Virus record (IMG/VR): IMGVR_UViG_3300044695_008209
Coordinates: 96,001-160,000 of that record
Direction: 5' to 3' (one strand)
Length of the DNA: 64,000 bases
Source: a virus
The notes beneath the pieces were generated by a model. The model saw nothing but the letters and a program-made list of their open reading frames with translations, had not been told where the DNA came from and made no database searches. Below, one piece after another: positions 22,631 to 63,014 of this stretch. The first letter of the stretch is position 1. Each line of letters starts with the position of its first letter. Position numbers and translations under genes: made by a program.

Positions 22631-23028
22631 ACGCCTTCGAGAAAACCGCAGCCTTCTACGACACCGCCCTCTCTGCGCCGACGACCGACAAGGTCGCCAG
22701 CGTCTACGAGATCTACAAGCAGGCCGGCTTCGACAAGGACGCGGGACTCGCCTCCGGCATCGGAGAGGCCGTCGCCGCCGGCGGGAAGTGGGTCGGGCAC
22801 CAGGTCGGGCGCGTGGGTGGCGCGATGCAGCGGACAGCCTTCCAGGCGTCGAAGGGCGTCCCCACGCAGGGGCAGGCCATGCTCCACGCCGCCGGACAGG
22901 GCGTGCGCAACCTGGGCAAGGGGATCGCGGCGAACCCGGGCACCGCAGCCGGCGTCGCCGGCGTTGGCCTCGCCGGTATGGGGGCCGCGGGAGTGGCCGG
23001 TCGGATGTCCGCCCCTCGCCAGCAGTAG
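22627..23028 (+). CDS. Small K-x-A / glycine-zipper probable head cargo protein (start moved to ATG 22627)
   Basis: ATGA coupling to RNAP stop; EKTAA, DKVAS, YKQAG, DKDAG; NPGTAAGVAGVGLAG. Confidence 0.75.
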   Translation: MNAFEKTAAFYDTALSAPTTDKVASVYEIYKQAGFDKDAGLASGIGEAVAAGGKWVGHQVGRVGGAMQRTAFQASKGVPTQGQAMLHAAGQGVRNLGKGIAANPGTAAGVAGVGLAGMGAAGVAGRMSAPRQQ

Positions 23029-39088: not shown

Positions 39089-40882
39089 ATGAAGCCTTTA
39101 GGGTCTGCAGATCCCCTGGACGTCTTCCGCCTGATCAGGCAGGAGTCCTCCGACGGCGTCCTCGAGGACTACCCGAACGAGTGGGACTACGAGCCCCCCG
39201 TGCCGGACGTCTCCCCGTGGGAGTACACGGACGCGATGAGGGGGGCGAACGACCTCCTCGAGGTGTCCCCCTCCCAGTTCGTCGAGACCTCGATCCTGAT
39301 GCCGGACGCGGAGACGAAGACGCTCGTCCCGTTCGACTTCACGCACCGCCCGTACCTGCGCCGCATCTACGACACCCCGAGCAAGCGCGTCCTCTTGATG
39401 TGCGCGCGGCAGGTCGAGAAGTCGACCACCCTCGGGAACCGCATCCTCGCGGTCAGCTGCCTCATCCCGCACTTCCGCACGCTCTACGTCTCGCCCTCCG
39501 CGCAGCAGACGCAGGAGTTCAGCAAGACCCGCATCCGCGAACTCCTCGAGACGTCTCCCGACCTGCGGCGCTGGTTCCCCGCGCACCTCACGGACAACGT
39601 CTTCGAGAAGCGCGCGATCAACCGCAGCACGGTGACCCTGCGGTACGCGTTCTTGAACGCGGACCGGTGCCGTGGTCTTCGCGCCGACTTGGTGGCGCTG
39701 GACGAGATCCAACACATCCACCTCGAGAACATCCCCGTCATCGAGGAGGCGGCGTCCCACTCCCCCTACCGGAACTTCATCTACTCGGGCACCCCGCTCA
39801 CGCTCGACAACCCGATGGAGCACTACTGGTCGAACTTCTCCACCCAGAACGAGTGGGCCGTCCCCTGCGAGCGCCACGGTGTGCCGAAGGACCCCGGGTC
39901 CTGGCACTGGAACATCCTCGGCGAGGACAACATCGGGAAGCTGGGGCTCATCTGCGACAAGTGCGGAGGGCGCATCAACGCGGCGCACCCGCAGGCGCAG
40001 TGGGTCCGCACCGGCTCTCCCGACCCCACGCTGAGCGTCTTCGAGGGGTTCCGGATCCCGCAGCTCATGGTGCCGTGGATCGACTGGAAGGATCTGTACA
40101 CCAAGTACCAGGACTACCCGCGGGCCATGTTCTTCAACGAGTGCCTCGGGCTCTCGTTCGACAGCGGGCAGCGGCCCCTCTCGGCGGCCGACATCCAGCT
40201 GAACTGCGACGACGAGCAGCGGCTCAGCCCGGAGAACGTGAAGCTGTGGAAGGAGAAGCTCGCCGGCGTGCCCCTCTACGGCGGCATCGACTGGGGACAG
40301 GACAGCTCGAAGTCGTACACGGTGATGAAGGTCGGAGGGTACTACCGCGGGAAGTTCCGCGTCATCTTCGCGCACCGCTTCGTGGGGGCGGAGTCCGACA
40401 TCCGCGCGCAGATGGACAAGATCTGCCGCATCATCGACACCTTCCAGCTCGCCAGGGTCGGCGTTGACTACGGCGGCGGTCTTCACCCCAACGACGAGCT
40501 CCTGCGGAAGTACGGATCCCAGCGCATCGTGCGTTTCCAGTACTCGACCCCCAGCGTCTACATGAAGTGGGACGCCCAGCTGGGCCGTTACATCATCCAC
40601 CGCTCGGAGGTGATGTCGGCGCTCTTCAACGCCATCAAGCGCGGGAACGTCTACCGCTTCCCCGCGTGGAAGGACTTCTCGCAGCCGTTCGCCGCCGACA
40701 TGCTCTCGATCTTCTCCGAGTACAATGAGTTCATGCACATGACCCAGTACAAGAAGTCGCCGAACAACACCGACGACTCCTTCCACGCGCTGCTGTTCAT
40801 GACGTGCGCATCCATGCTGGACACCCCCCGCCCCGACATCTTCGTCCCCAACGCCGCGATCGACCGTCGCCTTGCGGACTAA
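39089..40882 (+). CDS. terL: Terminase large subunit, lambda GpA-like (start uncertain; 39089 preferred)
   Basis: ARQVEKST Walker A variant, RGLRADLVALDE Walker B, IYSGTP, Zn-ribbon CERH...CDKC, nuclease GGIDWG / GVDYG / DDSFHA. Confidence 0.9.
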   Translation: MKPLGSADPLDVFRLIRQESSDGVLEDYPNEWDYEPPVPDVSPWEYTDAMRGANDLLEVSPSQFVETSILMPDAETKTLVPFDFTHRPYLRRIYDTPSKRVLLMCARQVEKSTTLGNRILAVSCLIPHFRTLYVSPSAQQTQEFSKTRIRELLETSPDLRRWFPAHLTDNVFEKRAINRSTVTLRYAFLNADRCRGLRADLVALDEIQHIHLENIPVIEEAASHSPYRNFIYSGTPLTLDNPMEHYWSNFSTQNEWAVPCERHGVPKDPGSWHWNILGEDNIGKLGLICDKCGGRINAAHPQAQWVRTGSPDPTLSVFEGFRIPQLMVPWIDWKDLYTKYQDYPRAMFFNECLGLSFDSGQRPLSAADIQLNCDDEQRLSPENVKLWKEKLAGVPLYGGIDWGQDSSKSYTVMKVGGYYRGKFRVIFAHRFVGAESDIRAQMDKICRIIDTFQLARVGVDYGGGLHPNDELLRKYGSQRIVRFQYSTPSVYMKWDAQLGRYIIHRSEVMSALFNAIKRGNVYRFPAWKDFSQPFAADMLSIFSEYNEFMHMTQYKKSPNNTDDSFHALLFMTCASMLDTPRPDIFVPNAAIDRRLAD

Positions 40883-42801: not shown

Positions 42802-43716
42802 ATGACCCACTTCATCGAAGTGACCGAGCACTCCCTGCGGGACTTGTCCCGGCGGGCGACCACGCTCTATCTCAGCCCGGGCTCTGCTACGCCTTGCTCT
42901 CCGACGGAGGCCGTCATCAAGGTCGCGTCCGCCTTCACGGATGCGCCTCTCACGAGCGAGCACGTTCGCCGCATCTGCGAGATGACCTACCACGACATCT
43001 TCGAGCAGTCCTTCCGTGGGAGCGCCGGGCCCGACCGCATGGTCTCGTTCGATCCCCCCGATGCAGAGAAGGTCGCGTCCGCTATCCGGGCGCGGCGCCT
43101 CGACTCGTTCAGCGCGAAGGTGGCGAGTGCCCCCCGCGCAGGAGGCACCACGATGGACAAGAACGCTGATGCTCTGGCCGGACGCGCGCCGCCGGTACAG
43201 AACGCGTTCAGCGCGGCCATGCGTGCTGTCGCCCCCGACCGCTCTGGGATGAAGAAGGAGGCCCGCGCCTCGCTTCATCACACGCGTGTCCAGTTGAAGG
43301 AGGCGGAGACCGCCCTTCGTGTCGACCTGGCAACCGCTGTCGGCTCGGAGAAGGTGGCCTTCCTGGACCTCCTCAACGGCGCAGTACACGCCGTCCACCA
43401 GGGCGTGCCGGCGATGGCAGTGGTCACCGCGTGCCTCGAGTTCGCCAAGTCTGCAGGAGCTGAGGACGACCTCGTGCTCGAGGGTCTCGCCACGGACCTG
43501 CTGCGCGGGTTCGCCCGACGCGGCGTCGCCCTCAGCGGTGAGAAGGTCGCGAGCCTGAACGGGCTGTTCGTCAACGAGCGGCACCCCCTTCGCTCTCAGG
43601 TGATCAAGGTGGCGGAGCTTCGCGGCTACCGGATCCACGGAGAGATCGCGCTGCAGGACGTGCGCACCCAGATGCAACGTGTCGAGCGGGAGCTGCAGGA
43701 TGTCCTCTACCAGTAG
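42802..43716 (+). CDS. Probable head protein with multiple K-V-A motifs
   Basis: IKVAS, EKVAS x2, AKVAS, EKVAF, IKVAE. Confidence 0.75.
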   Translation: MTHFIEVTEHSLRDLSRRATTLYLSPGSATPCSPTEAVIKVASAFTDAPLTSEHVRRICEMTYHDIFEQSFRGSAGPDRMVSFDPPDAEKVASAIRARRLDSFSAKVASAPRAGGTTMDKNADALAGRAPPVQNAFSAAMRAVAPDRSGMKKEARASLHHTRVQLKEAETALRVDLATAVGSEKVAFLDLLNGAVHAVHQGVPAMAVVTACLEFAKSAGAEDDLVLEGLATDLLRGFARRGVALSGEKVASLNGLFVNERHPLRSQVIKVAELRGYRIHGEIALQDVRTQMQRVERELQDVLYQ

Positions 43717-43984
43717 AGCGCCGTCGGGTCCGCTCACCGAGTGGGCCAAGTCCGCAGGCCTCATCTCCTCGGGGGTGTCGCTGGCTGGGCGTGGTCTGGC
43801 CGCGACGGGCAAGGGTGTCTGGAACGCTGCCGGGCACCTTGCCCCGAACCCGCTGATGCGGGCGGGGCTCATCGGGGCGAGCACGGTCGCTGTAGGATCC
43901 CAGGTCCCGCAGCTTGCCGGGCGGATGTCCCAGGACTACCACTACGCCAACGGCACCGCCCCTACCACCAACCGAGGATTCTGA
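43700..43984 (+). CDS. Small K-x-A / glycine-zipper protein (94 aa)
   Basis: GGGAG RBS; WAKSAG, NPLMRAGLIG. Confidence 0.6.
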   Translation: MSSTSRAPSGPLTEWAKSAGLISSGVSLAGRGLAATGKGVWNAAGHLAPNPLMRAGLIGASTVAVGSQVPQLAGRMSQDYHYANGTAPTTNRGF

Positions 43985-45007
43985 ATGGACACCACACTCG
44001 TCGAGATCCTGGCTGCGCACGGGTCGGGCCGTATCAGCGCCGAGGGCGCCGCCCGGAGCGTGAAGCTGGCCAGCATGCTCGGGATGAAGAAGGAGGCCCT
44101 GAATCTCCCGCCGTCGGTGATGGCGGCCCTCGGCAAGCTCAACCCCAGCCAGTCGACGCGCGACGCCATGGTCCACGGGCTCGCGGCCAGCGGTGCGATC
44201 GGTGCTGCTGGGATGGGAGTGCACGCGCTCTCTTCCGGTGCTCGCGCGCTGACCGAGAGGTACTCCAAGAAGAAGGACCTCGAGAAGATCCTCCAGACCT
44301 TCCCGCGTCTGCGGGAGTACCCGCAGGCCGAGATCGACCTCGCGTACAACTCCATCCGGCACATGAACCCTCACATCGCGAGCGACCCGCTCGCGGGCGG
44401 TTCCCTTCTCGGCCAGGTGCTGCGGCAGCGGGACTCGCTGGACCCCAAGACGCTGCGCATGGAGGTCGACCTCGCCGGGAACCTGCTGCGTCTCCGTCCG
44501 GAAGAGCAGCACATCGGCGAGGAGATCATGCGCGACGCCACGAGCGCCGGCATGGCGATGGGCTTCCAGGAGGCTGCCAAGGCGCGCGACCGCGCGCAGG
44601 CGGAGGCCTTCCAGTTCGGAGAGAACCAGAAGAACCGCGACGCCCAGAGTGCGCTGCAGACCCAGCAGCTGCGTGCTCAGGGCGGCATCGCCCAGGCCAA
44701 CCTGAACCTCAAGAAAAAGGAGATGGCCAACCGCGTGAAGGAGATGGCCGCTGCGCGCGCCGCCTCTGAACGGGACTCGAAGACCGAGCACGGCCGTCGA
44801 ATCTCCCTCGCCGAGCGGATGCAGACCTTCCAGCGGGAGGAGAACGAGAAGGGCCACAACCGGCAGGACGAGCGCCTCTTCCCGCAGGCAATCCTGCGCG
44901 GCGCCGTACTCAACGAGTACATGGACCCGCTGACAGGCCAGTCGATCCCGCCCTCCATCGGGGACGTTCAGCATCTCTACCCCAGCCTGCGCCGCTTCAT
45001 GCCCTGA
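43985..45007 (+). CDS. Probable head protein, coiled-coil C-terminus
   Basis: GAGG RBS; VKLAS, KKEAL; TGATG coupling to protease. Confidence 0.72.
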   Translation: MDTTLVEILAAHGSGRISAEGAARSVKLASMLGMKKEALNLPPSVMAALGKLNPSQSTRDAMVHGLAASGAIGAAGMGVHALSSGARALTERYSKKKDLEKILQTFPRLREYPQAEIDLAYNSIRHMNPHIASDPLAGGSLLGQVLRQRDSLDPKTLRMEVDLAGNLLRLRPEEQHIGEEIMRDATSAGMAMGFQEAAKARDRAQAEAFQFGENQKNRDAQSALQTQQLRAQGGIAQANLNLKKKEMANRVKEMAAARAASERDSKTEHGRRISLAERMQTFQREENEKGHNRQDERLFPQAILRGAVLNEYMDPLTGQSIPPSIGDVQHLYPSLRRFMP

Positions 45008-46920
45008 TGGAGAAGTACTTCCAACTCCACGGGAAGACGGCCGAGGGCCGTCCTCTGATCCACCTGGTCGAGCCGGGCACCCGGTACGGCCTGGGTGCGT
45101 CTGCGGGGTTAGAGAAGGTCGCGGGCGGAGAGCACCTGCCGGAAGTGCTGGAGCTCATCGAGTCTATCCAGCCGCAGTCCGACCGGCTCTACCTCGTGAA
45201 CAGCGCGCTGGGTGCGGGGGAGTACGTCGGGTTCAACCTCCGGGGCGACTGGTTCGGCGAGCGCGGCCTCCTCCACACGCCACCCGGCTGGGACCGGATC
45301 CCTGTGTGGGACGTGGACGCGCGGCGGCGCGCGGCGAGTTCGACCGAGCGCGCTGGCGACTGGGGGATGCTCGCGTGGGGCTACCCCACGTTCATGAACG
45401 CCCACCGGTTCCGCCACCACGTGAACAAGGACCCCGAGAAGGCGTACGGCTACGTCCTCGGTGCGTTCTGGGACGCACGCATGCACCGCGTGGTCCTTGT
45501 GTCGGAGCTGGTGCGTGAGATGTGCGCGCGCCTGGGGGCCGTCGACCTCTACGACCGGATCGCCGGCGGGGAGTTCCCGGACACCTCGATGGGCGCGAAG
45601 GTCCCGTACGATCGGTGCTCGATCTGCAACCACTACGCGCGCTCACCGGCCGACTATTGCCTGCACGTGCGCCAAGGCGCATCCCCTCCCTACGGGATGC
45701 GGGCGATCCTCGGCGACGGACGCATGTGCGGGGTCTACAACGACTACCCCCGCTTCTTCGACGACTCGTACGTCTTCATCGGCGCGGAGCGATCCGCCAA
45801 GGTGATGGCCAACATCACCTCGCAGCTGAAGGGCACCCGCGCGTACACGAACCAGCTGTTCCAGCCGGGGGCGAGTCTCTCGACTCGTGAGGTGACCGCA
45901 GACGCTCCTGCCAGTCCGCTCGAGGAACGGAACGAGCGGCTCGGACTGGCCGTGGCAGGAGTCCTCAACTCCCGCGTTCGCGGTCCGAACGAGAGCCGTG
46001 TCAGCGAGGCCATCTCACAAGCGCTGTCGGCGGTGCCCGTCTCGAAGAATGACGCCGAGGCGAAGGCGATGCAGCACGCCGAGGAGCTGCTGCGCCGGCG
46101 CGCCGCGGTCTCCGACCACACAGTTTCGGAGGACGAGCTCCGCTTCTGGGAGGGCAAGGCGTCGAGAGACCTGAGCGATCGCCACAGCGTCACCACGGCC
46201 CAGCGGGACCGTGCAGTCGCCATCCTGCGCTCGCGCATGGACCAGATGGGCTCGACGGAGAAGCTCGGAACGCTCGCGAAGTGGGCCACCATGACGAAGC
46301 GGCTACCGGCACCGGACAGCACGCAGTACGCCCTGCTCCGCGACCACGTCGGACGCCTGACACCGGTTCTTCCGCAGCGCGTGTACGACGAGTGCAGTTC
46401 TTCGGTACCGGGCATGTGGCGAGGGCTGTCCGGACTGTCGGCCCTCGGGATCGTCCTTCGCCCCGAAGAGTTCCAGCAGTGCGCGCTGCGTGGCATGGGG
46501 GAGGACGCCCTGTCCGACCACTGCACGTTGGAGGGACTCCGGTTCCAGCCCACCCCGCGCGACCCGTACCATGAGCCCCGGTGGATTCCACACATCCCCG
46601 CCACCGGTGATCTACAGCGACTCGTACAGCTGCTCGGCTCCGTCCTGCAGGGACGCTCGTTTGCTCCGAGTGCGGTGCACGTACGGATCCTGACACCACC
46701 ACCGCTCGTGGGTCCTCGATCCGAGCGCGTTGTGGATGAACCGGTCTTGAATCAGGTATCTCAGATGTACAACGACTACCGGATGGGGTTGTTGGCGCGA
46801 GATGCCGACTGGAGCTATGTGCCTTTGGGTGCTCGTTCCGGTGCCTTCTCTCTCGACAGTAAGACCGCCGCCGCTGCCGATGCCGTCTCCGCACTTCTTC
46901 TTCATCTTGCACACTGGTAG
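45007..46920 (+). CDS. Prohead (maturation) serine protease, HK97/herpes-assemblin-like fold, with Cys-rich insert and C-terminal extension
   Basis: FRHHVNKD (His), DTSMG (Ser), CSIC...C, FFDDSYV...GA; position upstream of scaffold and capsid genes. Confidence 0.72.
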   Translation: MEKYFQLHGKTAEGRPLIHLVEPGTRYGLGASAGLEKVAGGEHLPEVLELIESIQPQSDRLYLVNSALGAGEYVGFNLRGDWFGERGLLHTPPGWDRIPVWDVDARRRAASSTERAGDWGMLAWGYPTFMNAHRFRHHVNKDPEKAYGYVLGAFWDARMHRVVLVSELVREMCARLGAVDLYDRIAGGEFPDTSMGAKVPYDRCSICNHYARSPADYCLHVRQGASPPYGMRAILGDGRMCGVYNDYPRFFDDSYVFIGAERSAKVMANITSQLKGTRAYTNQLFQPGASLSTREVTADAPASPLEERNERLGLAVAGVLNSRVRGPNESRVSEAISQALSAVPVSKNDAEAKAMQHAEELLRRRAAVSDHTVSEDELRFWEGKASRDLSDRHSVTTAQRDRAVAILRSRMDQMGSTEKLGTLAKWATMTKRLPAPDSTQYALLRDHVGRLTPVLPQRVYDECSSSVPGMWRGLSGLSALGIVLRPEEFQQCALRGMGEDALSDHCTLEGLRFQPTPRDPYHEPRWIPHIPATGDLQRLVQLLGSVLQGRSFAPSAVHVRILTPPPLVGPRSERVVDEPVLNQVSQMYNDYRMGLLARDADWSYVPLGARSGAFSLDSKTAAAADAVSALLLHLAHW

Positions 46921-46999
46921 TCCGCCATCATAGGATAGAGACCTTGGCGGCGACCGGCGAAAAGCCATCCCACCGAAACCCTCCTGGAGCTCGAACCGA

Positions 47000-48148
47000 A
47001 TGACCACCCTCGCCGACACCCTGGCCCAGCACAACATCAGCGCCGATGACCTGGAGAAGGCCGCGAGCGTGCGCATCTTCCAGAAGGTCGCGAGCGCCGA
47101 GAACATCGACCTCTCGCAGCTCGCGCCGGAGCAGCTCGAGGAGCTCTACGAGCACTTCGAGGCGAACGTCCTCCCGGCGATCGTCGGTGGTGGCGAGCCC
47201 ACCACCGAGGCCAAGATCGCCTCGCTGAGCGAGGACGACCTCATCACCCTCTTCGACAAGCAGGCCAGCGCCGAGGGCCTCGACCTCTCCGGTGCGACCG
47301 AGGAGCAGCTCTCCGACGCGTTCGGCTTCTTCCTCGAGAACATCCTCCCGGTCATGGCCGAGAACGGCTTCGAGCCCGTCACCGCGGAGAAGAGCGCGGA
47401 GGTCGAGGAGGCCCAGGCCAAGCTCGCCGAGGCCGACATCCTCGGCCGTCAGATGGCGCGCGGCTACGCCGACGAGCTGGCCAAGATCGCCGCGACGGAC
47501 GACCAGGGCAACTACTTCACGCAGGCGGCGAAGTCCAAGATCGTCGACGACGCGGGCAACGCAACGCACACTGGCCGCATGGGCAAGGTCAAGGACCTCG
47601 GGCTCTCGGCGCTGGGCAAGATGCGGCGCAACCCCAAGACCACCGCTGCTCTCGGAGTGGGAGCGCTCGCGGTAGGCGGAGGGGCGCTCGCACTCCGGAA
47701 GCACATGAAGGCCGAAAAAGAGACCACGGCCGGTGTGCAGCTCAGCGTCGAAGACGTGGAGATCCTCAGCCAGCTCGCCGACATCGGAGACGTGGCCGGG
47801 CTACAGAAGGCCGCGAGCCTCATCAAGAACGCGGCCGCGGGTGGCGAGATGGTGCACGTCCCGGGCAAGGGGTCAGCCCACACCATCAGCAACAAGCTCC
47901 GGCAGGGCGGAGAGGTCGCCCGCAAGGCGGTCACCGGCGGCTACGGACGCGGCGTGCAGGCAGCCACGATCGGCGGCGGCGCCGCTCTCGCCGCGGGCGG
48001 CGTTGGAGCCGCTCTCGCGCACCACATGAAGTCGAAGGCCTCCGAGGGGAAGGAGGCCACGGCCGACGCCGTCATCGACGTTCTCGTCGAAGAACGGGCC
48101 ACCGACCTCGCGGCTGAGTGGCTCGTGGCGAACGGCTACGGATCGTAG
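47000..48148 (+). CDS. Scaffold/core-like head protein with internal repeat
   Basis: Acidic helical repeat units, ADELAKIAA, 9 K-x-A motifs, two glycine zippers. Confidence 0.7.
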   Translation: MTTLADTLAQHNISADDLEKAASVRIFQKVASAENIDLSQLAPEQLEELYEHFEANVLPAIVGGGEPTTEAKIASLSEDDLITLFDKQASAEGLDLSGATEEQLSDAFGFFLENILPVMAENGFEPVTAEKSAEVEEAQAKLAEADILGRQMARGYADELAKIAATDDQGNYFTQAAKSKIVDDAGNATHTGRMGKVKDLGLSALGKMRRNPKTTAALGVGALAVGGGALALRKHMKAEKETTAGVQLSVEDVEILSQLADIGDVAGLQKAASLIKNAAAGGEMVHVPGKGSAHTISNKLRQGGEVARKAVTGGYGRGVQAATIGGGAALAAGGVGAALAHHMKSKASEGKEATADAVIDVLVEERATDLAAEWLVANGYGS

Positions 48149-48153
48149 TGGTG

Positions 48154-48351
48154 ATGTCGCTGCCCCAACTGACGGCATTCGTGGACGAGGTCAGCAAGCT
48201 CGCTGGCCTCGCATCCCACCCTGCCATCGCGGGGGGCGCGACGAAGAAGCTGCTCAGCGCCACCACTGCTCCGGCGGTGTCGGGGCTCAAGCAGATCTCC
48301 AAGGCCACTTCTCCGGCGGCCCTCACCCCTCCCCCCAACATCTTCGCCTGA
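48154..48351 (+). CDS. Small K-x-A protein (65 aa)
   Basis: AFVDEVSKLAG motif. Confidence 0.6.
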   Translation: MSLPQLTAFVDEVSKLAGLASHPAIAGGATKKLLSATTAPAVSGLKQISKATSPAALTPPPNIFA

Positions 48352-48358
48352 GGCATCC

Positions 48359-49702
48359 ATGTCGGTCCAATCCATCATCGAAGCGGCTCTGAAGAAGGCC
48401 CGCACCACGGCCGGGGGATCCGACAAAACGGCCTCGGCCGGCAGCCCGGACCTGATCAAGCTGGCGCACCAGCTGGCAGACGCCAACGAGTTCATCGCGC
48501 TGAGCGCCGCCGACGACGGCACTCCCGAGGGGCAGGTCCGGCGCAGCGTCGTCGAGAACTTCTTCAAGGGCGCCGGCGGCGAGAAGGTGCCGGGTCCCGC
48601 GCAGAGCGAGTCCCCCACGGGCACGCAGGCCGTGCCCCCGCAGTCCGGCGCCAAGAAGATCCTGCCGCTCGGCAAGGCCAGCGGCAACTCCCCCGCGGAG
48701 TCCGGAGCACCCACGGGCACGCAGGCCACCCTGGACCAGACCGGCACCAAGGCGGCGGGCATGACCCTCCTCGACATGCTCACCAAGAACGCGGACACGG
48801 CGTCCATTCCTGGGCCCAAGCAGAGCGTCGCCGGCGAGAACGCCGCGGCTCCGCCCGCGAAGAACGAGAACTCCAACATCGAGGCCCTCCGCTCGGCCGC
48901 CGGCATGGTCGCTCTGACCAAGCGCGAGGCCAAGCTCCCGACCCGCGAGCGTCTGAAGAAGCTCTTCGCGCACGCCGGTGACACGGGCCCCTCCAGCGCC
49001 GCAGCCCAGGCTGCGTTCCCCAACGCCTACGCCAAAGGCGGGATGAAGGTGGCGGCGATCGCCTTCACGGACGCCGGTCACGAGTACGAGCGCGCAACGG
49101 CGCGCGCGGAGTCCAATGCCCGCAGCCGCGCGATCAACGCGGACCGGGAATACTCCCGCGAGCAGCCCCTTCTCGGGCACCTCCAGGGCGTAGGGATGAG
49201 CGAGATCGGCCACCGTCTCGCGGCACGGCATGCCGAATACCGGGAGCGCAAGCACGGCGACAAGCGCCAGTCGTTGAACCCGTTCGGCGGCTTCCTCACC
49301 AAGACCAAGGCCGAACAAGCCGAGAAGAAGGAGGCGTCCATCGCCTTCACGGACGCCGGGCACAGGCGCAACGCCGAGTACGGACGTGCCATCGAGGAGG
49401 CGCACACGGGTCACCGGCACGCGGCTGACACCTACGACAAGGAAATGCCGATTCTCGCCGGCGGTACGGGAACGATCCATCGCCTCATCGCACGTCACGG
49501 CGCGTACCAGGCACGGAAGCACGACGACAAGCGTCAGGCCCTCAACCCGTTCGGCGGCTTCCTCACCAAGACCAAGGCCGAGGAGGACGAGAAGAAGGCG
49601 TCCCTCTACGACTACGCCGAGCTCGCCGAGATCGCCGAGGCCGGTGAGCTCGGTGACGAGGCCCGTGCCATCATCCTCTTCGCCGAGAGCCTCTCAGTCT
49701 GA
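48359..49702 (+). CDS. Probable internal head protein with tandem duplication
   Basis: GAGG RBS; DKTAS, MKVAA, KKEAS, EKKAS; duplicated IAFTDAGH...NPFGGFLTKTKAE unit. Confidence 0.75.
   Translation: MSVQSIIEAALKKARTTAGGSDKTASAGSPDLIKLAHQLADANEFIALSAADDGTPEGQVRRSVVENFFKGAGGEKVPGPAQSESPTGTQAVPPQSGAKKILPLGKASGNSPAESGAPTGTQATLDQTGTKAAGMTLLDMLTKNADTASIPGPKQSVAGENAAAPPAKNENSNIEALRSAAGMVALTKREAKLPTRERLKKLFAHAGDTGPSSAAAQAAFPNAYAKGGMKVAAIAFTDAGHEYERATARAESNARSRAINADREYSREQPLLGHLQGVGMSEIGHRLAARHAEYRERKHGDKRQSLNPFGGFLTKTKAEQAEKKEASIAFTDAGHRRNAEYGRAIEEAHTGHRHAADTYDKEMPILAGGTGTIHRLIARHGAYQARKHDDKRQALNPFGGFLTKTKAEEDEKKASLYDYAELAEIAEAGELGDEARAIILFAESLSV
49277..49581 (+). repeat. 38-bp exact direct repeat (49277-49314 and 49544-49581) within a roughly 270-bp coding duplication
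   Basis: aacccgttcggcggcttcctcaccaagaccaaggccga occurs twice. Confidence 0.9.
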
Positions 49703-49935
49703 TGCGCCAGATCCTCGCCAACATCGAGAAGTGTGCGGGTGCGGACGACCCTCGGGCCGCCGCGTTCCGTACACTCTCTGTGCTCCCCAAGACGGCATCG
49801 ATCGATGACCGCTCTTCGGAGACGGAAGAGGAAGCCCGAGCACGTCGCGTAGGCGAGTTCCTTCGCCGACGGGCCCCGAGCGGGCTACTGAACGGTTCAG
49901 CATCTCCCACCCCTCCGAAGGACACGACGCCATGA
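49702..49935 (+). CDS. Small K-x-A protein (77 aa)
   Basis: TGATG coupling; EKCAG, PKTAS. Confidence 0.6.
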   Translation: MRQILANIEKCAGADDPRAAAFRTLSVLPKTASIDDRSSETEEEARARRVGEFLRRRAPSGLLNGSASPTPPKDTTP

Positions 49936-50318
49936 GCTCCCACGATATCGACGGTGTTGCTGCCGTTGCGGTCCAGTCCGCCCGCGCCCTCCGTGAGTTG
50001 GCGACCAAGTGCGCCTCTCTGGAGACCGAGAACGTCTCCCTCCGCGAGAAGGTGGCCGGCTACGAGCGCGGGGAGCAGGTGCGCGTGCTCGCGAAAGAGA
50101 TGGAGGACCGGGGGCTCTCTCCCGAGCTCAGCATGGACGAGAAGATCGCGTCCATCGCGAAGTACCCGGACCTCGGCCTGGTGCGCGAATCCATCAAGCT
50201 CGCCGGCGGCGGGCGTCTGGACATGGCCCGCGTGGCCGACGAGTCCACGAGCTCCTCGCGGGATGCGGCCTCGGATTCCTTCACCCAGTTCTGCCTCACC
50301 GGGCAGCCTTCTTCCTGA
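49932..50318 (+). CDS. Coiled-coil scaffold-like protein (128 aa)
   Basis: ATGA coupling; EKVAG, EKIAS, IKLAG. Confidence 0.7.
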   Translation: MSSHDIDGVAAVAVQSARALRELATKCASLETENVSLREKVAGYERGEQVRVLAKEMEDRGLSPELSMDEKIASIAKYPDLGLVRESIKLAGGGRLDMARVADESTSSSRDAASDSFTQFCLTGQPSS

Positions 50319-50386
50319 CCCCTCCACCGCAATCCCTTGACCCTGCGTTACAGTAGGGGCAGAATCTCCCCACCGAGGAAATGAAC

Positions 50387-50923
50387 ATGGCCGGCAAGTA
50401 CGTCACCATCCTGAACCCTGGCTACTCGCAGCTCATCACGAAGGACCTGCCGTACCTGGCCGGCTCGGGGGAGAGCTCGTCCATCAATCCCTTCAACCCC
50501 TCGGACGACCGTCCGCTGGTGGAGGGTGAGTTCCTCGAGCTGGTCGCGTCCGGCACGGCGAACCGCTACACCCGCGGCGGGAACAACGTGGTCACCACGC
50601 CCGACACGCTGGACGGTGAGGGCACGGTTCCCTCGTTCCTGTACTTCCTCGAGGAAGGCCGGTACGACGCGCAGGTCGCCCAGATGTGCCACGTGATCCG
50701 CGGCCCCCTCGGCTTCGAGTTCCGCACCAAGCTGTGCCGGTCGTCCGGCCTCTCGGTCAACTCCAAGGTCTCGGTGTGGGACTGGGATGGTGGCGGCGCG
50801 AGCCCCGGCGCCTACGGCGTCGTCCGCCGCGTGCTCGGTCTCTTCTCCGCCGGCTGGTGCGTGGGCCGCGTCTCGCGGATCTACGGCACCGACGACATCT
50901 CCGTCATCTACGGGCTGCAGTAG
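50387..50923 (+). CDS. Probable capsid decoration/stabilising protein
   Basis: GAGGA RBS; small beta-rich protein immediately upstream of MCP. Confidence 0.55.
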   Translation: MAGKYVTILNPGYSQLITKDLPYLAGSGESSSINPFNPSDDRPLVEGEFLELVASGTANRYTRGGNNVVTTPDTLDGEGTVPSFLYFLEEGRYDAQVAQMCHVIRGPLGFEFRTKLCRSSGLSVNSKVSVWDWDGGGASPGAYGVVRRVLGLFSAGWCVGRVSRIYGTDDISVIYGLQ

Positions 50924-50999
50924 TCTCCTCAGCTACGCGCTGAGGGGCATGCCTCCTACTCCACCCCCCACCAGACCACTACTTCTTCTGAGGATCGCC

Positions 51000-52166
51000 A
51001 TGAACAGCAGCATCGACGGCACCAGCGCCCGCGACATGAACGCCGGGTTCGTCGAGCGGCTCGACACCGACGGCACCACCAAGACCGCGGCCGAGTCGCT
51101 CAACTTCATCCGGGACCGCATCCGCGAGGGCAGCTTCACGGACATGATCGTGGCCAACGAGCGCGTCGTGCGTGGCGATCTGCAGCGGTCCACCGAGCAC
51201 GACACCCTCGTGAAGATCGTGGACATCGAGCCCGGTTCGCGGGCGATGGCGTTCACCTTCCGCGGCCAGCCCGACGCCCAGTACGTCACCGGCAAGCGCT
51301 TCGCGATCGGCTTCTTCACCGTCTCGAGCCTCAAGTTCGAGATCGTGGAGCAGGAGCTGATGGCCTACGAGATGCCGGTCACGCGCATCATCGAGGAGAA
51401 CTCCCTCAAGGACATGGTCGAGGTCAAGGACCGCACGTTCCTCGTGCACACCGAGACCGCGGTCGAGGCCATGCAGGAGGAGGCGAACGGTTCCGTGGTC
51501 GGCTTCAACACCACCAACGTGAACTCGGGCGCCTGTCTCGAGGTCTCGAAGGTCAAGGGCAGCCTCGCGCTGCAGCAGGCCTCGGACACCTTCGTGGTCA
51601 AGGCGATCCAGCGCCCCGACATCGTCAAGATCAAGCGCCTCCTCAAGCGCGTGATCACCGACGGTTCCGGGAACGTGGTCCGCCAGGGCCGCCTGCGCCC
51701 CGAGGTCATGCTCGCCTGCGAGTCGGACATCGACGAGTTCGACAGCTGGACGCACGAGGACCTGGGCTCCAAGCTCCAGTCCGAGACCGCGGTCGACGGC
51801 TGGGCCTACAACAAGGCCGTCGGCCTTCGCATCGTGAAGACGATCAAGAACGACATCCTCCGCGAGGGGAACATCTACGTCTTCACCAGCGCCCAGTACT
51901 TCGGGCGGAACTACACGCTGAACGACGTGAAGTTCTACATCGACAAGATCGCCAACCGGATCTTCTGGCAGGCGTGGATGGACATCGGCATGGGCATCGC
52001 GAACATCGCCTCGGTGGTGAAGCTCGAGCTCTACTCCGGGTCCGTCACCAGCGGTGACACCGACAGCGGCTACGCCGCGGGCATCCCGGTCGAGATCGAG
52101 GACATGGGCGCGGTGAACAACAAGGTCGCCGAGGGCCTCACCTTCCCGCACATCAACCTCTACTGA
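51000..52166 (+). CDS. Major capsid protein (HK97 fold; start moved to ATG 51000)
   Basis: GAGG RBS; about 388 aa, strongly biased codons, follows protease/scaffold/decoration genes, followed by hairpin. Confidence 0.8.
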   Translation: MNSSIDGTSARDMNAGFVERLDTDGTTKTAAESLNFIRDRIREGSFTDMIVANERVVRGDLQRSTEHDTLVKIVDIEPGSRAMAFTFRGQPDAQYVTGKRFAIGFFTVSSLKFEIVEQELMAYEMPVTRIIEENSLKDMVEVKDRTFLVHTETAVEAMQEEANGSVVGFNTTNVNSGACLEVSKVKGSLALQQASDTFVVKAIQRPDIVKIKRLLKRVITDGSGNVVRQGRLRPEVMLACESDIDEFDSWTHEDLGSKLQSETAVDGWAYNKAVGLRIVKTIKNDILREGNIYVFTSAQYFGRNYTLNDVKFYIDKIANRIFWQAWMDIGMGIANIASVVKLELYSGSVTSGDTDSGYAAGIPVEIEDMGAVNNKVAEGLTFPHINLY

Positions 52167-52254: not shown

Positions 52255-53076
52255 ATGCGCCTTCTCGTCATCAATGCGGTCGGAGACCCCTCCACAGAGC
52301 GCACCCGTCGGCGCTTCCCGGGAAAGGTCTTCCAACGCCCCGTGATCGGCACCCTGCCCTTGGCGCCGGCGGGCCGCCGCGTGCTGCCGGTGGAGATGCT
52401 CAAGCCGGACCTCATCGACCAACTCGAGTACCTGGTGTCCATCGGGAACATCAAGGTGCTCGAGCTGGGCGCACGCTCTGCCGTCGACTTCGACGAGCTC
52501 CGCCGGCGCATGGGGTACCTCACCCGGACGGTGACCGAACCCCCGACTCCCGAGGCATCCGGTCCCTCAGTTCCGCTGGAGATCCCCGCGGAGTCGGGGG
52601 TTCCTTCCGTCGAGGTCTGCAGCTTCTGCGGTGGGTCCTTCCCGGCGCCCGTCGGGCTGCACCACACGGAGGCGGAGTGCGTGCAGGCGCAGCTGCCGCC
52701 CGCGACGACCCCAGGTGAAGTGCCGGACCCGCCCCAGGCACCGACCGAGACCCTCGACCAGGCGCTGACGCGGATCGATGATGTGCGGACTGCCGACATC
52801 GAGGAGATGCTCGCCGGCATCGAGGACGCACCGCCCGCACCTTCCCCGGAGCCCGCGCCGGGTCCTGGCGAGACCTTCACGCTCCCGGGCGACATCGACG
52901 ACCTCATCCGCAGCGCCAAGAACAAGAAGCTCGTGGCGGTCCTCGCCATCTTCGAGAAGTCGGGCGTGGGCAAGAACAAGCTCGTCCTCGTGAGCGAGGT
53001 TTCTGCCGTGCTCAGCGGGGACCCCGACCCCGTTCTCGCGAACCGTGCCATCGCGCTGCTGCGCCAGGAGGACTGA
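52255..53076 (+). CDS. Hypothetical protein with Pro-rich linker and CxxC...HH..C motif
   Basis: GGAG RBS; CSFC...HH...C. Confidence 0.7.
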   Translation: MRLLVINAVGDPSTERTRRRFPGKVFQRPVIGTLPLAPAGRRVLPVEMLKPDLIDQLEYLVSIGNIKVLELGARSAVDFDELRRRMGYLTRTVTEPPTPEASGPSVPLEIPAESGVPSVEVCSFCGGSFPAPVGLHHTEAECVQAQLPPATTPGEVPDPPQAPTETLDQALTRIDDVRTADIEEMLAGIEDAPPAPSPEPAPGPGETFTLPGDIDDLIRSAKNKKLVAVLAIFEKSGVGKNKLVLVSEVSAVLSGDPDPVLANRAIALLRQED

Positions 53077-53079
53077 CCC

Positions 53080-53568
53080 ATGGCCCAGATCACGATCCAC
53101 AACATCAGCGACCGCCCCAACACCCCCGGGGCACCGGTCTCCGTCATCCTCGGCGGCAGGAAGCTGCGCCCCGGGCAGAGCGTGTCGGTCGACGACTCCG
53201 TGTTGAACACGAAGCACCGCGCGATGCAGGGCACGCGCCTGTGGTTCGGAGAGCTCCCGAGCCGCTTCGTCCGCACGAGCCGGGCCGCGCTGAAGCTGCT
53301 CGAGGCGGCCACCGCTGCCGGGCCCACCGCCGCCCTCACCCTCGCCGAAGCGCGGGAGTACCTCTCGGAGTTCACGGTGGAGGACATGCTCGCGATGGCG
53401 CAGGCGTGCTCTCCCCCGATCGACCTCCGCCCGGGCGCGTCGAAGGAGGCCATTCTCTCTCGCCTGAGCCGTGCACTCTTCCAGGAAGGGCGTGAGCTCG
53501 ACCCGGAGACGTTCTTCTGGCTCGGACGCTGGACCGGTTCGCGCGGCGGGTTCACCCCCCTGGAGTAG
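53080..53568 (+). CDS. Hypothetical protein with C-terminal HeH/SAP-like helix pair
   Basis: GGAGG RBS; FTVEDMLAMA...GASKEAILSRL. Confidence 0.68.
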   Translation: MAQITIHNISDRPNTPGAPVSVILGGRKLRPGQSVSVDDSVLNTKHRAMQGTRLWFGELPSRFVRTSRAALKLLEAATAAGPTAALTLAEAREYLSEFTVEDMLAMAQACSPPIDLRPGASKEAILSRLSRALFQEGRELDPETFFWLGRWTGSRGGFTPLE

Positions 53569-53574
53569 CCGACC

Positions 53575-54066
53575 ATGACTACGGCTCTTCCCAACGACAC
53601 CGCGCGCATGAACGAGATGGTCGCCTATGTGCGGCTGTACATGCGCGACTTCCCAGAGCTGAACCGGCTCACGCAGGGCTACGAGAACTCCCCGCGCATG
53701 GTCGCGTGGGCGATCGTGGATGCGCTCGACGACTGGAACACGACGCCGCCCTTCTTGGGTGCGACCTCCATCGCGAACTTCCCCTCCAAGAGCCTGCTCT
53801 GTCGCGGCGCGGTCATCGCGCTGCTCGAGAGCGTGGGGCTGCTGCAGATGCGGAACCAGCTCTCGTTCAGCGACGGCGGGATCTCGGTGTCGGTGAACGA
53901 CAAGGCCCCGATGATCATGCAGTGGCTCTCGATGATGAAGGCCTCCTACGAGGACAAGAAGGTCCGCATGAAGTCCTCCATGAACGTCGAGATGGCGATG
54001 AGCGGCAGCGGACATCACTCCGAGTACTCCGCCATCAACGGCACCTACTTGCCCGGAGTGATCTGA
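53575..54066 (+). CDS. Probable head-tail adaptor (head completion) protein
   Basis: GGAG RBS; helical 163-aa protein after MCP; VRLYMRD...SFSDGGISVS pattern. Confidence 0.55.
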   Translation: MTTALPNDTARMNEMVAYVRLYMRDFPELNRLTQGYENSPRMVAWAIVDALDDWNTTPPFLGATSIANFPSKSLLCRGAVIALLESVGLLQMRNQLSFSDGGISVSVNDKAPMIMQWLSMMKASYEDKKVRMKSSMNVEMAMSGSGHHSEYSAINGTYLPGVI

Positions 54067-54905
54067 TGGAGTCGCACTGGGCCCCTCGTTCTCCCCTTGC
54101 GCGCCACGCCGCGGCCGCAGACCTGTGGATGGAGCTCACGGGCCGCAAGAGCGCCGCCGTGCTCGAAGTCGCCAAGGAGTCGATGTCGAAGCACGCCAAC
54201 GGGGACGCGGTCGCGAACCAGCCGCAGCCTGCTCCCGCCACACGTGCTCCCCTTGTCGGGGCCGTGGCCGGGGGGCTGACGGGTGCGGGCCTCATGGGCG
54301 CCGCGGCACACCACGCGAACAAGAGCCTCGCGACGGGCGCGGCACGCATCCCGCGGCACCTGGCCGCGCTCGGTGGCGGGACCGTCGGGGCCGGCGTCGG
54401 CGCGACCCTCGGGGCCGGGTACGCCATCCGCAAGATGATGAAGCAGCCGGACGAGGCCCCTGCGAAGACCGGGGCTGCGGGTCCGCTTCTTCATTTGCAT
54501 GCGCACGGTGCCGGGCCTCGCGACGTGGCCGGCAAGATGATCGAGTACCTGCGCACCCATCCGCGAGCTGCCGCAGCCGCCGGCGCTGCCCTCCTCGCAG
54601 CGCCGGCGGCGGGCGCGGGCTACCTCCACGAGAAGGCCCGCCACACCGCAGGTGGTGGCGGGAAGAGCGAGTACGAAATCGACAACGACCTGGCCCTGGC
54701 TGGGCACCAGGCGCGCGTTGAGCACAAGGGGAAGCCGCCGAGCGGCGTCGACCGTCTCGTGGAGAAGTACCTGTTGCTGAAGGCGCAGGCAGGGAAGGAA
54801 GGACGAGAGAACCCCGGGCGGGCCGCGGCCTACGGGGCGATCCCGTACGGGGCGCTCGCCGGCGTGACTGGTGCCGCGGTCGTACCTCGGCTGCTGCGGT
54901 GGTGA
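54066..54905 (+). CDS. Gly/Ala-rich glycine-zipper probable head cargo protein (start ATG 54066)
   Basis: TGATG coupling; SKHAN; four Gly/Ala hydrophobic segments. Confidence 0.68.
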   Translation: MESHWAPRSPLARHAAAADLWMELTGRKSAAVLEVAKESMSKHANGDAVANQPQPAPATRAPLVGAVAGGLTGAGLMGAAAHHANKSLATGAARIPRHLAALGGGTVGAGVGATLGAGYAIRKMMKQPDEAPAKTGAAGPLLHLHAHGAGPRDVAGKMIEYLRTHPRAAAAAGAALLAAPAAGAGYLHEKARHTAGGGGKSEYEIDNDLALAGHQARVEHKGKPPSGVDRLVEKYLLLKAQAGKEGRENPGRAAAYGAIPYGALAGVTGAAVVPRLLRW

Positions 54906-55789
54906 AGTTCACCCGCCTGCAGGTGACCGGCTTCAGTCGCCGGTACTTCGACGTGGACTGGGAGATCGCTCCTACCCACGACGACATGCAGGAGTGGGAG
55001 TTCTTCGTCGAGCGGTCGGAGTCCGAGGCGGGTCCCTGGATCGTCGTCGCCGGGCCCATCGTCGACCGCTACTACCTGCGGGACAACACGACCCCGCAGA
55101 TCTCCCTCAACCGCTCGCTCTTCTACAGGGTGCGGGCGGTGAACCCGTCTCGAGGACTCGACGTCGTCTCGATGCACGCGGATCGAGAAGGTGAGCCGGA
55201 CCTCATCGCCACTGAGATCGCGAGCCTGGAGCACCTGCTCTTCACGGAGTTCACGGGCACCCGCTCCTGGCTCTTCACCCGACGCACGTTCGGACAGCGG
55301 TGCCCGCAGTGCTGGGACGACGTCCTCTCGAAGATCATTGACGACTCCTGCCCGACGTGCTTTCGGACTGGCTTCTCCGGCGGGTACCACTACCCGATCG
55401 AGTTCTTCGCCCAGTTCGACAAGAGCCCTCAGTCGGAGAACGCGTCGACGTACGACCACCACCAGCTGAACCCGCAGACGTTTCGCTGCACGGCGTCTCC
55501 GAAGATCACGCCGATGTCTCTGGTCATCGACCACAAGAACCAGCGGTTCCGGGTCCTCACCGTCTCCCACACATCGCGGCTCGGGGTCGGAGTGCACCAG
55601 GAGGTGCAAGCGATCCAGCTCCAGCCGGGGTCCATCGAGGACGCCATCGAGCTGAAGGTCGAGCACCGGACGCTGAGTCTGGCTGCTTCTCGCAACTACA
55701 CCAACCCGCAGAACCTCGAAGCTGCGGGTGGGGCTGACCTGCCCGAACTGGATGGGCTACTGGGGCGATATGGATACCGAGATGCGTGA
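54899..55789 (+). CDS. Probable neck/head-closure protein with Zn finger
   Basis: N-terminal Ig/Fn3-like segment; RCPQCWD...CPTCFRTGFSGGY; position. Confidence 0.55.
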   Translation: MVKFTRLQVTGFSRRYFDVDWEIAPTHDDMQEWEFFVERSESEAGPWIVVAGPIVDRYYLRDNTTPQISLNRSLFYRVRAVNPSRGLDVVSMHADREGEPDLIATEIASLEHLLFTEFTGTRSWLFTRRTFGQRCPQCWDDVLSKIIDDSCPTCFRTGFSGGYHYPIEFFAQFDKSPQSENASTYDHHQLNPQTFRCTASPKITPMSLVIDHKNQRFRVLTVSHTSRLGVGVHQEVQAIQLQPGSIEDAIELKVEHRTLSLAASRNYTNPQNLEAAGGADLPELDGLLGRYGYRDA

Positions 55790-56204
55790 CCCGCTCCAGC
55801 ACATTCGGGACCAGCCCGGGTACCGGGAGTACCAGGACACGGCCGCGCAGGCGCCGCCGTCGAGGTACCCGTGGGGCACCCTCCTCGCCAACGTGGGCGG
55901 CATCGCGGCCGCGCACACGGCCGGGTACATCAGCGCCGGCACCCTCGCGAACATGCTCGCATCGTCCAGGGTCGGCGAGCGGTTCTCCCGGCTCAGCCCG
56001 ACGGCGCAGCGCAACGCTGTAGGGCAGGCCGTATCCATCGCTGGGTCCGTGGGGGTGGTTGCGACTGGGCTCGCCCACATCGCAGGGCAGATGCGCATCG
56101 CGGAGGAGGTCTCTCGACTGGAGAGGGAGCGCACCGCGGCGCCGAACGAGAAGGTCGCGTCGGTCTACCTCACGTACGAGCGTGCCTTCCGGGATCTCCT
56201 GTGA
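55782..56204 (+). CDS. Small membrane-like K-x-A protein (start uncertain: 55770 or 55782)
   Basis: Two hydrophobic segments; C-terminal NEKVAS. Confidence 0.62.
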   Translation: MRDPLQHIRDQPGYREYQDTAAQAPPSRYPWGTLLANVGGIAAAHTAGYISAGTLANMLASSRVGERFSRLSPTAQRNAVGQAVSIAGSVGVVATGLAHIAGQMRIAEEVSRLERERTAAPNEKVASVYLTYERAFRDLL

Positions 56205-57004
56205 GCACGGTCGCGACCAGATCCAAGCGGGTCTCCCTGGAACGGGGGACGAACCCGCTGGTCTACGCGCAGCGGCTGTACGTGCAGTTCCTTCAGGGCC
56301 TGTTCAACTTCAACGCCGTGGAGTGCCTGCACTGGGAGCCGGACGAGGAGATCACGGAGATCGTGATCCGCGCCGAGGCGCCCCTCAACATGAAGAGCGT
56401 CGGGAAGCGCCCCGTGATCACCGTGGTCATGGGGCCGACGCAGTTCCAGGGACTCGGCATCGACCAGATGCAGTCGATGGACCTGGCCGGAGAGAGGCGC
56501 GTGCACACGGACCTCATCTCCGGGCACCTCGTGGTCTACTGCCTCGCAGAGACCGACGTGGTGGCGCAGTGGATCGCGCACATGGTCGTGCACGGGACGT
56601 TGGTGAACCGGCGGCTCCTCGAGTCCTCCGGGGGGTTCCACCAGATCGCGCGCCCTGCCCCGTCGATGAACGCGCCGAGTCCTCCCGGAGCTCTCATCGG
56701 AGGGGATCCTGCCGGACTCGTCATGGTCCAGGTCAACCTGCCCTTCGCCTTCCAGTGGATGTGGTCTGCGGAACCTACTGCTCCCAGCCAAGCTCGATCG
56801 CTGGACATGGTTACGAGCAAGAAGAGGGCCAGCGACTACCCGTACACTTCCCCCTCTCGACTGGAGAAGGTAGAGTTGGCGATGTCGGCCGTCCCCGTCA
56901 CCGTTCGCCGGCTCTCCGGCGCCACGATCACTACCGAGACCATCCTCAACGGCATAGACGACCTGCAGGTTGTCCTTGCTTCTACCAGTTCCGACGAGGC
57001 CTGA
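56201..57004 (+). CDS. Probable tail terminator/completion protein (start GTG 56201)
   Basis: GTGA coupling; directly upstream of sheath. Confidence 0.55.
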   Translation: MSTVATRSKRVSLERGTNPLVYAQRLYVQFLQGLFNFNAVECLHWEPDEEITEIVIRAEAPLNMKSVGKRPVITVVMGPTQFQGLGIDQMQSMDLAGERRVHTDLISGHLVVYCLAETDVVAQWIAHMVVHGTLVNRRLLESSGGFHQIARPAPSMNAPSPPGALIGGDPAGLVMVQVNLPFAFQWMWSAEPTAPSQARSLDMVTSKKRASDYPYTSPSRLEKVELAMSAVPVTVRRLSGATITTETILNGIDDLQVVLASTSSDEA

Positions 57005-57008
57005 TCAC

Positions 57009-61496: not shown

Positions 61497-61535
61497 TACA
61501 CTTCCCCCACCTGCCGCCAGATTCTCGGAGTCCAC

Positions 61536-62939: not shown

Positions 62940-62945
62940 GATGTA

Positions 62946-62971
62946 GGAGGGGGCGGGCAGCCGCCCCCTCC
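62946..62971 (+). terminator. Hairpin between tail-associated gene and tube gene
   Basis: Perfect 11-bp stem GGAGGGGGCGG-GCAG-CCGCCCCCTCC; weak U tract. Confidence 0.55.
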
Positions 62972-63014
62972 GCCTCTCTCGACCACCTTCCCACTCTTCG
63001 ACAAGGCAGAACCC

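Follow-up and report, generated by a model that had tools for sequence, protein, structure and literature searches.

We analysed a 64,000-nucleotide stretch of viral DNA (the window: bases 96001-160000 of the 182,777-bp IMG/VR record IMGVR_UViG_3300044695_008209, estimated to be 99% complete and 67% GC) that carries a block of head genes at 42802-52166. The block encodes a predicted maturation protease (45007-46920) and a set of proteins sharing a short peptide motif, Lys-x-Ala followed by Ser, Ala or Gly (K-x-A-[S/A/G], each occurrence being called a site below), which we propose to be the sequence that this protease recognizes and cuts. Because high GC content generates many spurious open reading frames (ORFs), genes were called from third-position GC and start context, giving 220 genes and 93% coding sequence; the calls agree with the gene starts in an earlier inspection made from the letters without database searches (hereafter the sequence-only reading), which had drawn attention to the motif. 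The head module runs from the large terminase (TerL, 39089) through the protease (45007) and a coiled-coil protein (49932) to the major capsid protein (MCP, 51000), an order shared with Salmonella phage Arash and Vibrio phage D69. Searches of PHROG and Pfam returned no matches for most of the neighbouring structural genes. The features of the block, preceded by the terminase upstream of it, are as follows (aa, amino acids, numbered within each protein):

39089-40882, upstream of the block: TerL (PHROG 675, E 1e-52)
42802-43716, + strand: 304-aa head-module protein with five sites (aa 40, 90, 106, 216 and 248), four of them KVAS
43700-43984, + strand: 94-aa ORF with KSAG at aa 17; weak coding evidence, homologue in one related locus only
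43985-45007, + strand: 340-aa head-module protein; its leader ends in KLAS (aa 27)
45007-46920, + strand: predicted maturation protease precursor, 637 aa (fold model, weak PHROG 18299 match)
47000-48148, + strand: 382-aa protein with seven sites (aa 20, 29, 72, 87, 162, 270 and 276)
48154-48351, + strand: 65-aa ORF with KLAG at aa 15; weak coding evidence
48359-49702, + strand: 447-aa protein with six sites
49702-49935, + strand: 77-aa ORF with sites at aa 10 and 30; homologues in 3 loci, weak coding evidence
49932-50318, + strand: 128-aa coiled-coil, scaffold-like protein with four sites (aa 26, 40, 71 and 89)
50387-50923, + strand: 178-aa protein between the scaffold-like gene and the MCP, conserved among 27 related loci
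51000-52166, + strand: MCP, 388 aa (tblastn match to Arash gp226, 'major capsid protein', E 6e-21)

The 11 plus-strand proteins of this block hold 30 K.A[SAG] sites, against 6.2 ± 2.4 in 2000 per-protein shuffles that preserve composition; none of the shuffles reached 30, and their maximum was 18. The enrichment claimed by the sequence-only reading thus stands against a composition-matched null. To avoid dependence on that reading's choice of motif, we scanned all 8000 patterns of the form X.YZ: in the block, K.AS ranks first (16 vs. 1.36 expected, P=2e-12) and K.AG second (9 vs. 1.73), and outside the structural region the scan found no enrichment of either. Five further plus-strand proteins (11087, 12912, 22627, 31255 and 32976) carry 20 sites where 3.3 are expected. 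The tail-side genes at 52255-63716 are at chance (4 vs. 4.0), as are the 167 genes outside the region (39 vs. 38.3). The near-absence of the motif from the largest proteins, also pointed out earlier, is borne out, with one site against 1.28 expected in the 1495-aa protein and four against 5.7 in five large proteins that include those of 1021 and 853 aa, which the sequence-only reading called fibre-like. The sequence-only reading had listed 18 motif-bearing proteins; a strict site occurs at least once in each of them, although taken singly only about eight reach significance (11087, 22627, 32976, 42802, 47000, 48359, 49702 and 49932).

Position within the protein is as distinctive as number. 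The first site lies within 40 residues of the start in 10 of the 11 consecutive head genes, compared with 5 of 165 background genes, which is where propeptides of the T4 or phiKZ type would be predicted from sequence. Sixteen of the 18 listed proteins likewise have a site inside their first 40 residues; the 55782 protein has a C-terminal site only, and the 63726 protein has an off-consensus KLAD near its start and an internal KEAA. The only head-block gene without any site is that of the 178-aa protein (50387-50923), which may be a decoration or auxiliary shell protein that stays unprocessed.

Individual proteins repeat the pattern. The 42802 protein, positional counterpart of Arash gp220 and D69 gene 268, has five sites where 0.45 are expected, and its sites at aa 40 and 248 are kept in 89% and 68% of relatives. 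The 47000 protein has seven against 1.44; the first five are retained in 59-86% of relatives, in flanks that are 19-60% identical. For the 43985 protein, the K and A columns of the alignment are 0.86 identical, compared with 0.22 elsewhere, and for the 49932 protein, which shows weak coiled-coil-type matches and four sites against 0.24 expected, the values are 0.93 and 0.37. The 48359 protein contains two tandem units of about 90 aa (49046-49600, aa 230-414) with conserved ends, IAFTDAGH at the start and FGGFLTKTKAE near the end; each unit follows directly on a K-x-A-[A/S] (aa 230 and 324), and a third such site, at aa 412, follows the second unit. The MCP has a single site, K28-T-A-A31 (51081-51092), which predicts, from its sequence, the loss of a propeptide of about 30 aa.

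The protease itself is organized as a 39-aa N-terminal propeptide, a catalytic domain at about aa 41-290, and a 340-aa helical C-terminal extension, with these landmarks:

45115-45126, + strand: N-terminal site K37-V-A-G40, in the linker directly before the folded domain
45418-45420, + strand: His138, candidate catalytic histidine, invariant in 60 sequences
45586-45588, + strand: Ser194 of DTSMG, candidate nucleophile, invariant in 60 sequences
45616-45729: conserved Cys cluster C204, C207, C218 and C241 (aa 204-241), just after the nucleophile
46861-46872, + strand: C-terminal site K619-T-A-A622, where the terminal helix begins; 16 residues follow Ala621

By sequence the enzyme is nearly orphaned. 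It has a weak match to PHROG 18299, 'head maturation protease' (E 4e-5), and its close homologues are all named 'hypothetical protein' by their sources. No Pfam model matches the window protease or its 60 homologues, and neither single-sequence nor profile searches of PDB sequences with the protease found anything. Six-frame searches of the genome with the Pfam S77, S78 and ClpP models detected no other such protease; the equivalent S21 search was also without a match, but its control was silent too, so that it is uninformative.

The fold is more telling. A first full-length model, from a 16-sequence alignment, left the catalytic domain at a predicted local distance difference test (pLDDT) score below 50 and was superseded by a domain model built from the 60-sequence alignment (33-74% identity; pLDDT 88.4, predicted template modelling score 0.82). 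Its best structural match is T4 gp21 (5jbl_B; Z 9.3, root-mean-square deviation 2.9 Å over 131 of 164 residues), followed by herpesvirus proteases (34 entries, Z 5.3-8.0), and the next matches are unrelated (MCE proteins, Z at most 4.6). The top Foldseek matches are from the gp21 and herpesvirus families too, with an E of only 9e-3. The His/Ser protease of the sequence-only reading therefore holds at the level of fold, gp21 and the assemblins being the sole clear structural matches, and it is on the invariance of His138 and Ser194 that the catalytic residues are assigned. The label 'assemblin-type' fits the fold, but the closest structure is that of T4 gp21 and no S21, S77 or S78 model matches, so 'gp21/assemblin fold' describes the enzyme better. 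The Cys cluster after the nucleophile looks like a zinc-binding insert, and this insert is absent from T4 gp21 and the assemblins.

Sites at both ends of the protease (EKVAG and SKTAA) had been noticed before and are located at K37-V-A-G40 and K619-T-A-A622. At the N-terminal site, K37 and A39 are at least 90% conserved across the 60 sequences, and the model changes from a pLDDT of about 52 (aa 21-40) to at least 89 from aa 41 on. The C-terminal site follows a stretch with pLDDT below 50 (aa 608-616) and lies in a helix (aa 618-636) of the full-length model; 24% of relatives keep it as K-x-A-[SAG], and the others have K-x-A-D/E there.

These two sites are part of a family-wide arrangement. An exhaustive HMMER search with the protease returned 2452 representative clusters (50% identity) at E≤1e-3. 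A set of 150 family representatives (36-77% identical) contains 678 K.A[SAG] sites where 159 are expected, and 347 of K.AS where 44 are. Of the 114 members with a full domain, 90 have a site directly before the catalytic domain, 95 have one within 60 aa after it, and 24 have one in the last 45 aa; the window protease has the C-terminal site (aa 619 of 637) but not the post-domain one. An InPase domain is fused into the C-terminal extension of 34 of the 150 representatives and is homologous to a separate, leader-bearing InPase protein encoded just past the window. In these fusions a site marks the C-terminal boundary of the InPase domain in 25 of 34 cases and lies just upstream of it in 16 of 34, whereas the InPase cores contain only 2 sites in 4141 residues. 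In the fused and the split arrangement alike, the sites therefore fall at leaders and domain junctions and are kept out of folded cores. Some protease homologues, including those in three loci (positions 10001-13141), are about 1010-1046 aa long and contain an intein of roughly 400 aa with Hint, LAGLIDADG and Intein_splicing domains, which sits exactly at DTSMG, the Ser194 motif. Insertion of an intein at this position is typical of essential active sites.

The logo of 675 family sites reads [M/L/F]-E-K-[T/V/I/L]-A-[S 51%, A 31%, G 18%]. Its information is confined to six residues, positions -2 to +3, with essentially none beyond, and the longer F-x-x-E-L-x-K context proposed in the sequence-only reading is not supported by it. 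Lys is invariant and Ala is 100% conserved at its position; Arg never stands in for Lys, nor Gly or Ser for Ala. Glu is confined to position -1, where 25% of sites have it. Since only the hexapeptide is shared and no information lies outside it, the leaders are unrelated by descent. Codon choice among synonyms is free at the sites, in the window genome as in a relative of 46% GC, which places the constraint on the protein and not on the DNA.

The motif is conserved across relatives. A scan of IMG/VR with the protease domain recovered 31 loci (66-87% identical in the domain, GC 46-68%), and K.AS is the top-ranked pattern in 30 of them, with P down to 1e-20. Alignments of the fast-evolving head proteins give K and A columns that are 0.50-0.93 identical, compared with 0.22-0.47 elsewhere, and 55-95% of relatives keep the site nearest the N-terminus of each protein at the aligned position. 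Selection acts on the motif, which is found throughout the clade, lies at N-termini and domain junctions, and flanks the protease's own catalytic domain in about 80% of the 114 full-domain members. A maturation protease that processes itself and many substrates would be expected to show this pattern.

The phage collection contains no cultured relatives other than Vibrio phages D69, D181 and D148, Salmonella phage Arash and, distantly, Bacillus phage G. In the head modules of Arash and D69, K.AS again outranks all other patterns (13 vs. 1.7 expected and 18 vs. 2.2, respectively), and no K.AS enrichment was found in the first 50 kb of Arash, which hold tail and early genes. The MCPs of these two phages are only 22-24% identical to that of the window and carry K-E-A-G at aa 27, corresponding to K-T-A-A at aa 28 here. 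Arash gp223 and gp225 and D69 gene 271 encode small proteins that consist of repeated E-L-V-K-E-A-S / E-L-E-K-A-A-A units, with up to 10 sites in 269 aa, and their sequences suggest that they are likely scaffold proteins cut into short peptides. Bacillus phage G, whose gp19 is a distant relative of the protease, was examined as a further case and set aside: its head module shows no K.AS enrichment, and the code is therefore not common to all relatives.

A proteome of the Arash virion is available. All the motif-rich head-module proteins are detected in it, at the level of protein coverage only, and the paper and its supplements make no mention of a protease or of cleavage. The sample contains 116 of 272 proteins, and cleaved peptides can remain in heads, which weakens arguments from coverage; protein-level coverage of this kind cannot settle whether cleavage occurs. 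By spectral count, RNA polymerase subunits are the most abundant virion proteins.

The enrichment, the conserved positions, the fold and the distribution over the clade are all observed; from them we infer cleavage, its register and a targeting role for the leaders. We judge it fairly probable that the Ser/His protease at 45007-46920, an enzyme of the gp21/assemblin fold, recognizes and cuts at [M/L/F]-E-K-[T/V/I/L]-A-[S>A>G]. On the pattern of the logo, the scissile bond is probably A|S, with Lys at P3, Ala at P1 and a small residue at P1', because the information stops at P1' and the same-fold assemblins cut A|S. In this scheme the late head proteins would be made with N-terminal leaders of 6-40 residues ending in the motif, and the protease precursor would have a propeptide at its N-terminus and a long helical extension at its C-terminus. 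All of these would come together with the scaffold-like coiled-coil proteins within the MCP shell, where the activated protease would trim itself after residue 39 and near residue 621 (and, in most relatives, also directly after the catalytic domain). It would then strip about 30 residues from the MCP, fragment scaffold-like proteins of the 49932, 47000, 48359 and 42802 types into peptides, and cut cargo such as the ferritin-like and InPase proteins, whether leader-bearing or fused, at the edges of domains. A wider proposal we hold only tentatively, and on balance lean slightly against: that this very large protease family of the gp21/assemblin fold (2452 clusters) cuts Ala|Ser as a protease-scaffold-cargo polyprotein system, with the [M/L/F]-E-K-x-A-S leaders acting as portable targeting and release tags for enzymes delivered to the host (InPase, ferritin-like and others), and so as a packaging tag ready for use across the whole clade.

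Several observations weigh against cleavage at the motif by this enzyme. Many internal sites turn over among relatives, and some orthologous positions read K-x-A-D/E/H, which means either that the P1' rule is loose or that those sites are dead. A post-domain site, present in most relatives, is missing from the window protease; no curated sequence model of a protease matches this enzyme, and its catalytic residues are assigned from invariance only. In the Arash proteome, the motif-rich gp221, gp223 and gp224 are covered to 100%, so that their leader peptides were detectable in the sample. A complex prediction between protease residues 36-292 and MCP residues 1-60 scored 0.01 (mark, 0.32), which speaks neither for nor against the pairing.

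Other accounts of the motif fit parts of these data. The same protease could use the same motif and cut after Lys ([M/L/F]-x-K|x-A-S), a charge-reversed version of the T4 L/I-x-E| rule; the closest structure is indeed that of T4 gp21, a hydrophobic residue stands two before the Lys as L/I stands two before the Glu in T4, and a tryptic virion proteome would be blind to such cuts. It would, however, be an unusual specificity that left P1' variable and demanded an invariant Ala and a small residue at P2' and P3', and the logo ends at S/A/G as expected of a P1' position, in keeping with the A|S cut of the herpesvirus relatives of the same fold; we regard cleavage after Lys as unlikely. Distinctly unlikely, in our view, is that the motif is an uncleaved docking or targeting peptide, recognized by scaffold, shell or protease for entry into the prohead, with cleavage elsewhere or not at all. 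Its N-terminal position in most head proteins, the full Arash coverage of several motif-rich proteins and the ability of T4 capsid-targeting leaders to target would suit such a role, yet proteins carry several sites at domain boundaries, the motif brackets the catalytic and fused InPase domains and is avoided in their cores, and scaffold-like proteins with 4-10 copies are better explained by cutting.

The invariant Lys might also mark a modification site, for Lys acylation or crosslinking or for Ser phosphorylation by a phage enzyme; half of the sites have Ala or Gly where Ser would stand, so that Ser is not obligatory as an acceptor, the leader and domain-boundary positions would have no obvious meaning, and no crosslink partner motif was seen, which makes this very improbable. 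As for a functionless by-product of composition, coiled-coil repeats or shared leader ancestry, tandem repeats do inflate some counts (the 48359 protein, Arash gp223 and D69 gene 271), but composition-keeping shuffles never reach the observed count. The absence of information outside six residues speaks against homologous leaders, Lys is not exchanged for Arg nor Ala for Gly or Ser, and the pattern holds over GC contents of 46-68% with free synonymous codons, so that this explanation is effectively refuted.

Cleavage at the motif by the window protease would place it beside three known kinds of system. T4 gp21 cuts at an L/I-x-E code, uses capsid-targeting leaders and carries copies of its motif at both ends of the protease (PMC9026906). 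The likeness would be extensive: a single protease serving many head substrates through a very short motif, propeptides at the N-termini of the MCP and of internal proteins, a scaffold cut into several pieces and a motif at both protease ends, with cleavage here predicted from sequence. Unlike gp21, the window protease has no Peptidase_S77 sequence match and is about three times longer, with its Cys-cluster insert and 340-aa C-terminal extension. Its sites do not show the Glu after which T4-type enzymes cut; instead of a Glu at P1, Lys and Ala are the invariant residues. In phage SPN3US, gp245 processes inner-head and ejection proteins at A-x-E via N-terminal propeptides, and cleaves itself (PMC10052503). 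The extensive inner-head processing of SPN3US and of phiKZ (gp175) is shared, as is a virion RNA polymerase, found in the Arash proteome; those proteases, however, cut after Glu (S/A/G-x-E or A-x-E) and belong to another sequence family, and the genomes of the present clade are about 180 kb.

Herpesvirus assemblins (MEROPS S21) act at release and maturation sites of the form (V/L/I)-x-A|S. They share with the window protease the fold, an Ala and then a Ser central to the motif, and a protease placed N-terminal to a long extension, with a post-domain site in 95 of 114 family members and a C-terminal site in the window protein. The differences are that Lys at P3 is obligatory here, that there is no S21 match, and that the window protein has no post-domain site. 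The A|S pair with a hydrophobic P4 is not found either: with an A|S cut, Glu would be P4 and the hydrophobic residue P5. P2 gpO and lambda C/Nu3 likewise combine a self-cleaving maturation protease at the N-terminus with an assembly domain at the C-terminus; those small phages have few substrates and are not known to have a proteome-wide short code, and the characterized myophage relatives are all known to cut after Glu. For the InPase proteins, the precedent is the description by Iyer et al. (2017) of phage polyvalent proteins with InPase domains, predicted to be packaged and delivered to the host (PMC5512222). The InPase lineage is the same, occurring here as a separate leader-bearing protein or fused behind the protease; Iyer et al. 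propose processing by zincin-like MPTases, whereas here the protease has a gp21/assemblin fold and the junctions are K-x-A-S.

Proteome-wide head processing by a gp21-type protease is thus already known. What appears to be new is the Lys and Ala-Ser specificity in place of Glu, and a large protease family without a Pfam model, whose close homologues are only named 'hypothetical protein' and which is frequently fused to cargo domains. The sequence-only reading knew of no description of the motif, and our literature searches agree, having found only the Glu-type codes of T4, phiKZ and SPN3US and the work on polyvalent proteins, within a scope that left out most subscription journals.

If the motif is a cleavage code, the mature virion proteome of a large, almost wholly uncultured clade could be read from sequence, and propeptides, scaffold fragments and packaged enzymes would be predictable across it. 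A second, non-Glu specificity would be added to the gp21-type proteases, and the Ala-Ser core, together with sites after the domain and near the C-terminus, would bear on the kinship of phage and herpesvirus proteases; should the A|S cut and the cargo reading both hold, the system would be a phage counterpart of the release- and maturation-site logic of herpesviruses. The leaders would then be candidates for tagging foreign proteins to be packed into capsids, as has been done with the capsid-targeting sequences of T4. With Salmonella phage Arash and Vibrio phage D69 both cultured, the idea is open to direct testing.

Outside the head block, four further motif-bearing proteins stand out in the window:

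11087-12109, + strand: 340-aa predicted head or internal protein, 5 sites against 0.41 expected
22627-23028, + strand: 133-aa protein, 4 sites, all in the first 40 residues
31255-32979, + strand: 574-aa protein with a ferritin-like domain (aa 379-487) and sites at aa 25 and 561, on either side of it
32976-34496, + strand: 506-aa protein, 8 sites against 0.74 expected

We infer a role as internal cargo for such motif-bearing enzymes. The ferritin-like Pfam domain of the 31255 protein scores 35 bits against a cut-off of 24.5, and this protein is possibly a packaged Dps/ferritin-like protein. Among the same structural genes, at 16319-22630 on the plus strand, one ORF of 2103 aa contains RNA polymerase Rpb2 (beta) and then Rpb1 (beta') domains, a fused multisubunit RNA polymerase that has no N-terminal K-x-A site. 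Just past the window, Pfam found InPase alone in the 67505 protein and no match for the 66207 protein, and recovered no GNAT or kinase domains at E≤0.001. After the tail genes, from 63726 onward and across the window end (genome positions 159001-166000), lie an 824-aa SNF2-family helicase and a 757-aa InPase-domain protein with six sites.

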